Shown piece by piece: positions 2,884-10,295 of a stretch of 64,000 nt of DNA. Every line of letters begins with the position of its first letter. Position 1 is the first letter of the stretch. This DNA comes from a virus (Duplodnaviria > Caudoviricetes): positions 128,001 through 192,000 of IMG/VR virus record IMGVR_UViG_3300032281_000616; one strand, 5' to 3'. A program made the translations under genes and the position numbers. The notes beneath the pieces were generated by a model. The model did no database searches. It was not told the DNA's origin and was given only the letters and a program-made list of their open reading frames with translations.

Positions 2884-4367
2884 TTGGAAGGAATCATTTG
2901 TTTAGCCTTCTTGAGAACATCCTGCTCTGAGATTTCTCTACCACTTAATAACATCTCAGCCACCCAATCTTGTAATTTGGGTAAATACATACCGATCTGT
3001 TTGGGGTTTGTTTTGAATTGTGGAAACCATTGCATCATTTTATTACCATTAGCATACTGAGCTATTTGTTTTTTCAGAGCATCAGCACCTCCCGGAACTG
3101 TGTTTAGTTTAGCTTCTGCTCTCTCAATCTTATCCATAAACTCTTGTTTATCAAATAGACCGGGACCACGAGAAGCTTCATCACAATATGCCACAGCCTT
3201 AACAGTCTCCCATGAAGGATCATGAATCAATTTTCTGAGAGTCTTTATATTGAGTGTATCTAGATTATGAACCATCATATGTTTAGCTACAGCATCAAGA
3301 ATGTTCTTTTTATCATTCGGTCCTAGTTTAGCGAATCTCATTCTTTTGAAGATTCCCTCAACAATAGGAACACCAGCAGCTTCATGACCATAATATGTAG
3401 AATGTCCATTCTTTTCACCTCTAGTTGTAGCTTTTCCAAAGTCGTGGAAAAGAACAGCTAAGTTAATCACAGGATCACTATAAGGTGAAACTTTTAAGCA
3501 TTCGTGAATGTGACCAAGAACTTTACTCTCCCCTTCTGGATGATATTTCGGATTATGCATCATTCCATCCATCGCATGAAACTCTGGAAGAATATCTTGT
3601 AATATTCCAGCTTCAGTAAGCTTACTTAAAAAGTTTGATAGAGTTCTTCCTGATTTGGCTGCTTTAAACATTTCTTGAGAAATACTCTCCATAGAAATCA
3701 GAGAAGAATCTTGTAACAAGTGCTTCAATTCTTTAGCAGCTTGTAGAGTCTCTGGCTCAATATCAAAGTCCATCTTAGCTGCGAATCTGAAGACACGAAG
3801 CAAACGGGTAGCATCCTCCTTAAACCTCTCTCTAGGATTACCAACTGCACGAATTAATTTATTCTGAAGATCCTGTAAACCACCCTGATAATCTACAATC
3901 CTACCACGATGATCAAGACCAAAACTATTGATAGTAATATCCCTACGTTTGGTATCCGTTTCAAAACTATCAACCTCTACAGAAACATTACTCTGTCTTC
4001 CCATTTCAGTTTGAGAATCTTCCCTAAATTTAGCTAAGTCATAAGCATAGTTGTTATATAGGATAGTATAAACTGGTTGAGAATCATTCTTTGATATATT
4101 ACGCAACTCAAAATGTTGAGACAAATCCTCGAAGGGGATATTAGTTGCCATATCAACATCATCGATCTCGTTACCCATAATAAGGTCACGAGGAACACCA
4201 CCAACAATATAAATCTCTCCAGAAGGAAACAGATCAACAATCTTGTTCATCAGATTCAAGGCTACTCGGAGTTCTTCAGAAGATGAGATAGCCTTATTCC
4301 ATTTCTCTGAAAAGTCATCTAGATTATTATTGACTGATTCGAAGAAGAATTTTTTGAATGGGATCAT
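2838..4367 (-). CDS. cca: CCA-adding tRNA nucleotidyltransferase with HD domain
   Basis: YIVGGVPRD...DDVDMAT, DTKRRDITINS, RFKEDATRLLRVFRFAAK, then HIHE...VLFHDFGK (HD). Confidence 0.92.
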   Translation of the reverse strand: MIPFKKFFFESVNNNLDDFSEKWNKAISSSEELRVALNLMNKIVDLFPSGEIYIVGGVPRDLIMGNEIDDVDMATNIPFEDLSQHFELRNISKNDSQPVYTILYNNYAYDLAKFREDSQTEMGRQSNVSVEVDSFETDTKRRDITINSFGLDHRGRIVDYQGGLQDLQNKLIRAVGNPRERFKEDATRLLRVFRFAAKMDFDIEPETLQAAKELKHLLQDSSLISMESISQEMFKAAKSGRTLSNFLSKLTEAGILQDILPEFHAMDGMMHNPKYHPEGESKVLGHIHECLKVSPYSDPVINLAVLFHDFGKATTRGEKNGHSTYYGHEAAGVPIVEGIFKRMRFAKLGPNDKKNILDAVAKHMMVHNLDTLNIKTLRKLIHDPSWETVKAVAYCDEASRGPGLFDKQEFMDKIERAEAKLNTVPGGADALKKQIAQYANGNKMMQWFPQFKTNPKQIGMYLPKLQDWVAEMLLSGREISEQDVLKKAKQMIPSNHLINPISFFTRSLT

Positions 4368-7638: not shown

Positions 7639-7723
7639 ATGTAATGCGTTGCTGTGGCGATATCATGGATAATAAAAAAATCCTATATAAAATGAAAAAA
7701 AAAATACAAAAAAATTTTTTAAG

Positions 7724-7813
7724 CTATACAGGAAAATTGAGAAAATTTATTAAAAAATATATTTTTCTATACAGGAAAATTGAGAAAATTTATTAAAAAA
7801 TATATTTTTCTAT
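7724..7813. repeat. perfect 43-bp tandem duplication, AT-rich
   Basis: CTATACAGGAAAATTGAGAAAATTTATTAAAAAATATATTTTT at 7724 and 7767, plus CTAT. Confidence 0.95.
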
Positions 7814-7939: not shown

Positions 7940-8161
7940 TCAACTCCAGAGGAGTTCGTTGAGTTCGAACTGGTCAACCTTGCGCACGTTGCAGGCAGCG
8001 GCGGACCTCCTTTGTTGCGGGCTCCAAGGCTTAGGGCCGAAGGCATCATGGAAAGCCTCCTCTTCACTGTCACCATGCCCTAGTAGGCACTGGCGTTTGA
8101 GATACGCGGAGCGTTTGGTGATGACATAGGCGGCGGTATCAGGCGTTAATGTGGTGGACAT
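7940..8161 (-). CDS. hypothetical early protein
   Basis: ATG 6 nt after TAGAAT of the motif; stop overlaps the next motif. Confidence 0.75.
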   Translation of the reverse strand: MSTTLTPDTAAYVITKRSAYLKRQCLLGHGDSEEEAFHDAFGPKPWSPQQRRSAAACNVRKVDQFELNELLWS

Positions 8162-8198
8162 GATTGAATTCTATTCTAGTGTTTCAAACGGAAAGGGG

Positions 8199-8347
8199 TG
8201 GCCTCGCGGGGAATCGAACCCTCATAATCTGTCCGGGGGTAGCTATTCCCCATCTCCACCTCACGCTTGCAATCGCTGGCGGTTGATTATGTTTTTCCTA
8301 GCCCTCTTCAAGGGCTACCCGCACCGAGCGGAAAAGGCATTTAAGCT
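8199..8347 (-). ncRNA. candidate structured ncRNA ending in a T-loop-like GGTTCGATTCC
   Basis: Lies between two promoter motifs with no useful ORF; TAGCCCT/AGGGCTA hairpin; 3' GGGTTCGATTCCCCGCGAGGCCA. Confidence 0.4.
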
Positions 8348-8373
8348 ACTTACATCCTATCTTAGTGTTTCAT

Positions 8374-8457
8374 CCGCTGGGTGGCTTCGTCACTCTCCTT
8401 GGCAATGACTAGCAAGTGGAGTAAAAAGGAACGGGTGAACTATCGCCACCCAGCGGC
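8374..8457 (-). ncRNA. candidate 84-nt rod-shaped ncRNA
   Basis: Starts at the predicted TSS; termini CCGCTGGGTGGC/GCCACCCAGCGG are a perfect 12-bp stem. Confidence 0.55.
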
Positions 8458-8492
8458 ATCATCATTCTGCTCTAGTGTTTCATCCTCTGAAG

Positions 8493-8569
8493 CACTTTCG
8501 AAAGCTCTTAGAATCGCTTCCAAGCTCTCGAAAGTGCCGCCCCTTGTCCGGGTTAGGGACAAGGGGCGG
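8493..8569 (-). terminator. two tandem strong hairpins downstream of the 166-aa gene
   Basis: 13-bp CCGCCCCTTGTCC/GGACAAGGGGCGG stem (8537-8569) and long CACTTTCGA/TCGAAAGTG stem (8493-8536). Confidence 0.55.
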
Positions 8570-8584
8570 GAAGGGCTTGGAGGG

Positions 8585-9085
8585 TTATTCCGCTGCGGTT
8601 GCGGGGGCGGTTGCAGTCGCCACCATTGCGGCAATCGCATCTTCAGACAATCCAAGGGCCGCGCCATACTTACGAATTTGAGCAACCAACCCATCGATGG
8701 TCGGCGTCTTGCTAACGGTTTCAGAATAGTCGCGAACCTTAATCGCTTCCCATGCCTCCCCGATCAAATCCTTGGTTTCGAAAACAGGGTTGCCGTCCTC
8801 ATCCAAGGCTTGCACCTCAACAGCTTCCCCATCGACTTCGACCGATTCCATCACTGGCACGGTTTTGAAGCGGCGATCCGTTGCGACCTTGTAAAGCACC
8901 TCAAAGCACTCTTTTTCAGACATAGGGATGGGAGGGGCCTTGGCAACGGCAGCGGGGCGGGTGAAGCCCTTGCGGAGTTCAGTGGCCTCATTTTTGAGGT
9001 TTTCTGTGATTCCGAACGTGAATTGAACGGGCTTCTTAGCAGTTGCGGTTGGGGCGGCGATAGGGGTAGTAGTGGTGGTTTGCAT
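8585..9085 (-). CDS. hypothetical early protein, Ala/Thr-rich, GC-rich codons
   Basis: 166-aa ORF behind the motif at 9104. Confidence 0.8.
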   Translation of the reverse strand: MQTTTTTPIAAPTATAKKPVQFTFGITENLKNEATELRKGFTRPAAVAKAPPIPMSEKECFEVLYKVATDRRFKTVPVMESVEVDGEAVEVQALDEDGNPVFETKDLIGEAWEAIKVRDYSETVSKTPTIDGLVAQIRKYGAALGLSEDAIAAMVATATAPATAAE

Positions 9086-9437
9086 AACGTCTATATTCTA
9101 TCTTAGTGTTTTATTCGACTTGCTTCTTTCGAGAGCTTCCCGCATCCTTTCTGGTAGGATGAACCATTTCGTGCTTTCATTCTGTCCTAGTGTTTAATGC
9201 TCTTTGCTTTCGAGGTAGGCATCCAATAGGGCATCGTTCTTTTCGGTGGAGTCGGTGGGAATCATGATGATCATGCCCCTTCATTCTGCTCTAGTGTTTC
9301 AACGACCCACTCACCCGCTTTTTTCATTCCCTTATGTATAGGATGGGAATCGGGGGCGTTTTCTAAATATACGGCGAAACAAATCAGGAGAATTATGGCG
9401 GAAAGATATTTCATCCCCTCTATTCTATCCTAGTGTT

Positions 9438-9605
9438 TTATCGTTTCTTGAAGTCCGAAAAACCAATCATAAGACTCCAAAAGTGAATCCACTTCTTAAT
9501 CTTAGCAATTCTGGTCTTATTCAATACTCTCACAGTCTTATTTACTGGAGTCAAAGTATCATAGTACCTACCAGAGATCTTATCTGTATAGTTGATGGGT
9601 TTCAT
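9438..9605 (-). CDS. small basic hypothetical protein (55 aa)
   Basis: MKPINYTDKISGRYYDTL...DFKKR; bounded by motifs at 9624 and 9431. Confidence 0.6.
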   Translation of the reverse strand: MKPINYTDKISGRYYDTLTPVNKTVRVLNKTRIAKIKKWIHFWSLMIGFSDFKKR

Positions 9606-9945
9606 GGTAAACTAATTCTACCCTAGTGTTTTATAAACAATTTTAGCGGAAGAAATCATGATAATTTTCCGCTTGCGTTCTTTAGGATATGTTTTTTTAT
9701 CAGTATGGTTGAAAGACCCGAGATTGTTGAAAAGGCATCGAACCTTTATTAGTATCATTTCATTTATCTAGTTTGTTACAGTAACTTTCTGCTTGGGAAT
9801 GTTATAGCAGTCTCCCTTCTCTATCTTATCAGGAATCATTATCATGGAGGCAGTTCAGTGAACCTTATCCCCGCTTATAGTAAGAGGATCTTTTAAGACA
9901 ATATTATTTAGTCTGGTGATCGTATTTTTATATATAAGAAAGTGT

Positions 9946-9989
9946 GTCCCCCTCCCGTTCCATCACCACATATTCATCGGGAGGGGGAC
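9946..9989. repeat. 12-bp perfect inverted repeat with 20-nt loop
   Basis: GTCCCCCTCCCG/CGGGAGGGGGAC in a non-coding stretch. Confidence 0.8.
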
Positions 9990-10295
9990 TGTTTACCACC
10001 ACAGTAAATGTTTTATTAGATCATGGCAAGTTTGTCAGATCAATAAAGTTATTAAATTGATAAAGTTATCATGACAAACTCCTATAGAGATTGTATAACT
10101 CTTCTCGATGCCATTCATCGATATACAATTCTCTATCCAATCTTATCCTCAACCATTCTTTCAGTCGCATGTCCTTAGTCTACGCTAGTGTTCTATTGAT
10201 ATATTCCAGTGCAAGTTTTCTACCACACTTTGATCAATCTGTCAAATCAACTTTTTTATTAGATTGATTTAATTGTCAGATCAAAGTAATAATAG

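Follow-up and report, generated by a model that had tools for sequence, protein, structure and literature searches.

The window analysed here, a 64,000-nt stretch (bases 128001-192000) of a 202,205-bp IMG/VR record with terminal repeats, encodes rIIA, rIIB, a Dda-like helicase, two RNA ligases and a CCA-adding enzyme, and has nearly all of its genes on the minus strand. The phage encodes a T4-type major capsid protein whose best identity to any cultured phage is 33%; it is a large, uncultured, T4-like phage from a lake and belongs to a lineage without a cultured member. Its G+C content is 33%, against 47% in the 2 kb that surround the element described below. This G+C-rich island (window 8001-10000) holds nine promoter boxes within 1.8 kb as well as several units too short for normal genes, and the homologous modules of relatives have 42-45% G+C.

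Within the island, all on the minus strand, a gene for a 166-aa protein (8585-9085) is followed by two stacked hairpins (8484-8569; z = -7.7), a promoter (8458-8482), a short element with paired ends (8374-8457) and the promoter box of the next cassette (8363-8370). The stacked hairpins form the upstream edge of the element's cassette and the next box its downstream edge. The 166-aa gene is the element's constant upstream neighbour and was used as an anchor in the search for syntenic loci. Its product has 33 homologues, all from uncultured sequence data and among them one of 96% and one of 81% identity, and matches no Pfam or PHROG family; its AlphaFold model, a four-stranded sheet with helices at medium confidence (pLDDT 76), matches no PDB fold, and the protein therefore gives no hint of a partner for the RNA. 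The stacked hairpins occur in sequence-altered versions in every syntenic locus, with a single hairpin and a T-run in their place in L135, and bear a weak likeness to the Rfam gyrA RNA that is below threshold (E = 0.033).

The promoter is one copy of an early promoter that is repeated in this genome. The window has 61 copies of the box AAACACTA, nearly all of them on the minus strand, against an expectation of about seven, and the whole genome has 73. Downstream of the box come 3 nt, a -10-like hexamer (TAGAAT, TATAAT, CAGAAT and similar) and 6 nt, and in 41 of the 73 cases an ATG stands exactly 6 nt past the hexamer, at the predicted +1 (chance expectation about 1.4). We found no fitting -35 element or ribosome-binding site at these early promoters, so the box is best read as marking a promoter from which transcription begins at the start codon itself, giving leaderless mRNAs. 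Late genes behave similarly: 69 copies of a TAAATA motif have an ATG 5 or 6 nt downstream. Few Shine-Dalgarno-like words stand upstream of the phage's genes; leaderless mRNAs appear to be used throughout the phage (in the window, over 7875-62975), early and late. In the copy that concerns us, the box lies at 8480-8473 and is followed by 3 nt, the hexamer CAGAAT (8469-8464) and the 6-nt spacer (8463-8458), so that the spacing rule places the predicted start at G8457, the position taken in other cassettes by the first base of a leaderless ATG. Because 41 of 73 boxes have their ATG at exactly this distance, we consider the start call well founded.

The first base past this start opens a perfect 12-bp terminal stem, in which 8456-8445 pairs with 8385-8374 and 10 of the 12 pairs are G-C; the next promoter box begins 3 nt beyond the end of the stem. 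Both observations bear out the earlier note, which had described an RNA whose start lies directly 5' of a perfect stem and whose stem partner ends just before the next box: the sequence and the genome-wide spacing rule agree on the former, and the gap is 3 nt for the latter. Folding of the 84-nt strand gives -36.6 kcal/mol (z = -4.33), a value that none of 200 shuffles matches. It should be noted that by an arithmetic estimate about 0.5 perfect 12-bp inverted repeats within 120 nt are expected per 64 kb of random sequence, and that such a repeat by itself is weak evidence; the element goes beyond chance because it is conserved, with compensatory changes, in two other phages.

The first of these, L125, was found through the helicase (77% identical) and uses the same promoter. 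Its layout repeats that of the window, with a homologue of the 166-aa gene, two hairpins, a promoter, an 83-nt element and the next promoter. An alignment of the 33 homologues of the 166-aa protein led to eight further syntenic loci (L138 proved to be the L125 contig again), and among these L130 carries the element. Both homologues thus lie at the same syntenic place, each behind its own promoter of the same layout. Five other loci with the same flanks (L131, L132, L133, L135 and L137) lack the element; there the hairpins run straight into the next gene cassette or into other sequence. L134 and L136 end within or just after the 166-aa gene and are uninformative on this point.

All three copies are 83 nt long and align without gaps. 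The RNAalifold consensus has four helices: P1 of 12 bp, P2 of 5 bp with a bulged U, P3 of 5 bp, and a short apical stem. P1 is the terminal clamp, with its 5' arm at 8445-8456 and its 3' arm at 8374-8385, and it is 100% paired in all three homologues; it opens at the base after G8457 in the window, with an offset of 3 nt in one relative. The junction that follows, with an invariant GA, and the 5' strand of P2 (GUUCAC, with the bulged U) occupy 8435-8444 and are invariant in the three homologues; the P2 strand pairs with the equally invariant GUGAC at 8389-8393. Between P2 and P3 lies a pyrimidine-rich strand of 13 nt (8422-8434), nearly unchanged among the homologues and unpaired in the internal loop of the rod. 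P3 (8421-8417 with 8399-8395) and the short apical stem with its 8-nt loop (together 8395-8421) show compensatory changes. P2 and P3 are the UCAC/GUGA and CUCC/GGAG pairings around a U-rich strand that the earlier note had picked out from the one sequence. For the interior, other folds come within a few kcal/mol, and the minimum-energy fold of L130 differs from the consensus by 11 kcal/mol. A kink-turn at the GA junction was considered and rejected by inspection, as the GA is not adjacent to the stem on the required strand in any homologue.

Of the 24 consensus pairs, 12 have changed on both sides with pairing kept (seven in P1, three in P3 and two in the apical stem), 95.8% of cells are paired, and none of 500 shuffles reaches these values, although with only three sequences the statistics of covariation are thin. 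Related sequences can beat shuffles even without structure. When the partners were slid by 1-3 columns, pairing fell to 33-49%, with 0-3 compensatory pairs. P1 is 46-79% identical between homologues yet always paired, with one of its C-G pairs becoming U-G, whereas identity is 78-88% over the junction, P2 and the pyrimidine loop, more than the 68-70% of the neighbouring gene's coding DNA. There are three G-U cells on the promoter-sense strand, at which the opposite strand would have A-C mismatches.

We therefore favour the view, with a probability of roughly 0.75, that the element is the gene of a selected, structured, non-coding RNA of 83-84 nt transcribed from its own copy of the early promoter, of which three sequences are now known. 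The description in the earlier note of a rod-like non-coding RNA agrees with the conserved promoter, the lack of a shared frame, the compensatory changes and the G-U pairs on the transcribed strand.

A rival to the non-coding reading is a gene for a tiny leaderless peptide. A start 2 nt earlier would give 16 aa in the window copy and 12 aa in L130, and in both copies ATG repeats overlap the spacer and are open in the same frame. However, these short open frames have no counterpart in L125, which lacks an ATG, GTG or TTG at the start or close to it, the stop positions differ, and no reading frame is common to the three copies. As read from the alignment, the substitutions between copies are not biased towards synonymous changes, nor do those that separate the window copy from L130 favour third codon positions, and coding cannot account for paired changes in two arms. 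We regard a peptide as scarcely credible, and a small peptide gene was rejected for want of a start codon in L125.

The element could also have been selected as DNA, as an inverted repeat that was left by or serves recombination between promoter boxes, a shuffling like that of PeSL cassettes, or that serves replication priming toward a set of nearby AT-rich 43-bp repeats; as free RNA it would then do nothing. It is suggestive here that phages acquire or lose the cassette precisely between copies of the repeated promoter box; the AT-rich tandem repeat that ends the array is about 600 nt downstream of it, and the apical hairpin of L130 (L130:3118-3133) has a 9-of-10 match to the promoter box in sense orientation. 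Weaker versions of this match are present in the window copy and in L125, and it may be a relic of recombination at the box. On the other hand, in transposon-like and recombination repeats the arms are the conserved part, whereas here the arms vary and the interior is conserved, which is the pattern expected, from the alignment, of an RNA rather than of a transposon end. Each genome has one copy, the G-U pairs are strand specific, and the element's own promoter is conserved, all of which makes selection as DNA improbable.

A precedent for mobile units of this kind exists in the PeSL cassettes of T4-type phages, regulatory junctions between genes in which a repeated early promoter motif bounds units that are gained and lost among relatives (PMC2839356; PMC4122927). 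Our element resembles them in being present in the window, L130 and L125 and absent from five loci, exactly between two boxes. It differs in that its unit is an 83-nt body with conserved loops and 12 covarying pairs, not just a promoter and a terminator stem-loop, and in that its promoter has another sequence, has no -35 element and starts leaderless mRNAs.

The distribution of the element matches that of such cassettes. With a covariance model made from the three copies, each of the three genomes yields a single match, and three related genomes of 96-100% completeness yield none, as do the other syntenic loci. The element is thus a rare, optional, single-copy cassette with the repeated promoter box on both sides, and it is dispensable, being absent from five syntenic loci and from the three related near-complete genomes. 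Among GenBank phages, blastn detected no exact or near copy; a 95%-identical sister contig stops about 550 nt before the element. In IMG/VR, a search for the exact stem pattern gave no match and a search for the promoter pattern gave single chance matches only. Scans with the core motif of IMG/VR and of 185,579 prokaryote genomes from GTDB likewise gave only chance matches, one of which (L128) was read and rejected. Applied to the first 100 loci from these scans, the covariance model rejected all 100 (best E = 0.3).

A feature that the earlier note had missed is a second fold, formed by the first ~35 nt of the transcript. In the nascent RNA a 7-bp hairpin (8452-8432) can form, followed by a U-rich tail (8431-8422), so that the pyrimidine-rich strand of the rod's internal loop doubles as the tail of the nascent hairpin. 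A terminator scan flags this arrangement (8422-8452) at the same place in all three homologues. The hairpin takes up part of the 5' arm of P1 together with the invariant UCACCC and therefore excludes P1 and P2. For the first 26-36 nt of each of the three copies this hairpin is the fold of lowest energy (-9.3 to -13.4 kcal/mol), and once the 3' arm is present the rod is better by 15-19 kcal/mol. In L130 the arm sequence is altered, yet a perfect 7-bp hairpin to the invariant UCACCC persists in a shifted register. To judge from its sequence, the hairpin resembles an intrinsic terminator placed some 35 nt downstream of the start, and it may stop or pause some polymerases at about +35. The pattern used in the scan is present in all three homologues; however, the U-tract is broken by CC beside the stem, and terminator-like sites are no more numerous in this region than in shuffles. 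The RNA probably folds sequentially, with a metastable 5' hairpin first and then the rod. With both folds conserved, the pyrimidine strand has two possible roles, as the tail of a terminator or as an exposed loop. Two conserved and mutually exclusive folds within so short an RNA make the element a small natural case of sequential RNA folding.

These observations raise the alternative that the cassette is an attenuator or insulator. The selected unit would then be the 5' hairpin with its U-rich tail, at which most transcripts would end, and the downstream half and the clamp would matter in read-through RNA only, for example by setting the level of transcription into the last cassettes of the array. 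The consistent position of the hairpin and tail in three homologues, their prominence as the minimum-energy fold of the nascent 26-36 nt and the perfect 7-bp hairpin that L130 keeps despite its altered arm all fit such a role; the phage has canonical hairpin-plus-T-run terminators elsewhere, and the pyrimidine-rich strand might be no more than the U-tract of this terminator-like hairpin. However, the competing strand, the 3' arm of P1, is made after the termination decision and cannot act as a cis antiterminator, and there is no room for an upstream alternative because the hairpin starts 5 nt from +1. In addition, CC interrupts the U-tract next to the stem, the downstream cassettes have promoters of their own, and attenuation leaves the seven compensatory pairs of P1 and the three of P3 unexplained. 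We consider attenuation a possible but unlikely purpose of the cassette.

Returning to the RNA gene, we asked how its product compares with known RNAs. The earlier note had suggested a protein-sequestering RNA, 6S-, Y- or antitoxin-like, and proposed a covariance search as a check. With Rfam 15, nothing overlaps 8374-8457 either at the gathering threshold or at E <= 10, and the element represents an RNA family that is not yet catalogued. Membership in the named classes also fails on size, on the lack of a Ro gene and on the lack of repeats or a toxin neighbour.

6S RNA is about 150-200 nt long and has a large central bubble between long helices, with which it mimics an open promoter. At 84 nt, the element is about half that size; it has no central bubble, its internal loop being asymmetric (13 nt against 1 nt), and no Rfam 6S match.

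Y RNAs, which are bound by Ro60/Rsr in animals and bacteria, come closer in shape. The element resembles them in size, in having its ends paired in a long stem, and in a pyrimidine-rich internal loop beside a conserved bulged helix. It differs in having no Rfam match, no Ro-binding helix by the Rfam models and no internal tRNA-like module, and a search of the 202-kb phage for a TROVE/Ro gene gave no match, with positive controls. A decoy in the manner of Y or 6S RNA, in which the bulged rod would be a putative binding site for a host protein, would draw on this likeness (about 84 nt, paired ends, a conserved bulged helix by a pyrimidine-rich loop) and on the invariant GA and U bulges, which look like protein recognition features. 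Set against it are the absence of a Rfam match to Y, 6S or any other RNA, the lack of a TROVE/Ro gene in the phage, and the lack of a constant protein partner, the 166-aa neighbour being found without the RNA in five loci and having no recognisable fold. A decoy of this kind seems to us quite unlikely.

Antitoxin RNAs of type III (ToxI-like) are tandem direct repeats of a short unit that adjoin the gene of a toxin endoribonuclease. Our element is a single unit without a repeat, its downstream neighbour differs in each phage, and the upstream 166-aa gene also occurs without the RNA. Type I systems such as hok/Sok combine a small hydrophobic toxin frame with an overlapping antisense RNA; at the element we found neither a shared frame nor a promoter box on the opposite strand. 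The hok-type mRNAs are known for metastable 5' hairpins and a clamp in which the 3' end folds back on the 5' end, and in this respect there is a likeness, as the nascent 5' hairpin of the element gives way to long-range pairing of the ends once the RNA is complete. Unlike them, however, the element has no toxin frame and no antisense partner gene, and it is far shorter.

Phage T4 itself makes two small RNAs, rnaC and rnaD, of 119-139 nt, which lie within its tRNA cluster and are cut from a tRNA precursor. These RNAs (species 1 and 2) are annotated in NC_000866 at 70908-71171. They share with the element that they are small, stable, non-coding RNAs of a T4-type phage, from early or tRNA-region genes, with no known function. 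The element differs in having its own promoter, in its length of 83-84 nt and in not lying beside tRNAs, and its covariance model, run with filters off against the rnaC/rnaD region, gave a best E of 2.3.

For the RNA itself we propose the following course. Host RNA polymerase would transcribe it early in infection, and the nascent 5' part would fold first, into the short hairpin and its U-rich tail. Transcripts that pass the hairpin would refold into the rod. No terminator was found downstream of the rod, so the 3' end of the rod is an assumed one; since no terminator follows, the 3' end would probably be trimmed back to the clamp. The G+C-rich clamp would shield both ends from exonucleases and so give a long-lived RNA, and the mature rod would act in trans through its exposed pyrimidine-rich strand and its apical loop. 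That the element is a stable, early, trans-acting RNA in a cassette with its own promoter is the likeliest of the readings considered here, although we give it somewhat less than an even chance.

As to what such an RNA would act upon, and granting that the RNA gene is real, our tentative first choice is that it pairs with segments of host RNA that are rich in purines and resemble Shine-Dalgarno sequences, and our second choice is that it binds a host protein. Within the phage genome, the search for antisense targets gave a best non-self duplex of -23.4 kcal/mol, no better than shuffled queries, which gave -22 to -28 kcal/mol. The conserved strand, UCACC followed by 3 nt and UCCUUUUU, resembles the anti-Shine-Dalgarno 3' end of 16S rRNA. 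This could be taken to mean that the RNA is a host-shutoff sponge, in which a very stable copy of the strand, made in abundance, would occupy host ribosome-binding sites and spare the leaderless mRNAs of the phage. We rate the sponge as highly improbable because the likeness was noticed post hoc and the strand is partly paired in the rod.

Few small RNAs are known from phages, and for most of them no role has been established. The present one is well delimited, with a promoter, an 83-nt body and paired ends, which makes it easy to synthesise, probe and delete. Should the conserved pyrimidine strand indeed target host ribosome-binding sites or a host protein, the RNA would give the phage a simple means of taking over its host.

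The surroundings of the element offer some further observations. An AT-rich tandem repeat (~43 bp) lies at window 7720-7810, at the convergence point where the early array ends, and is kept in the distant relative L137 (about 3330-3450); both adjoin the same GTTAGGAATTGG motif. The next cassette downstream of the element (window 8190-8346, minus strand) has a promoter and no start codon, and it is missing from the corresponding place in L125 and L130. ARAGORN and Rfam make no call on it, and its fold is no better than that of shuffles (z = -0.81); its 3' end resembles the T-arm and acceptor end of a tRNA. Elsewhere in L125 (17056-17780), stretches of about 440 and 250 nt lie behind two promoter boxes and have no start codon at +1; these units are further candidate non-coding early RNAs.
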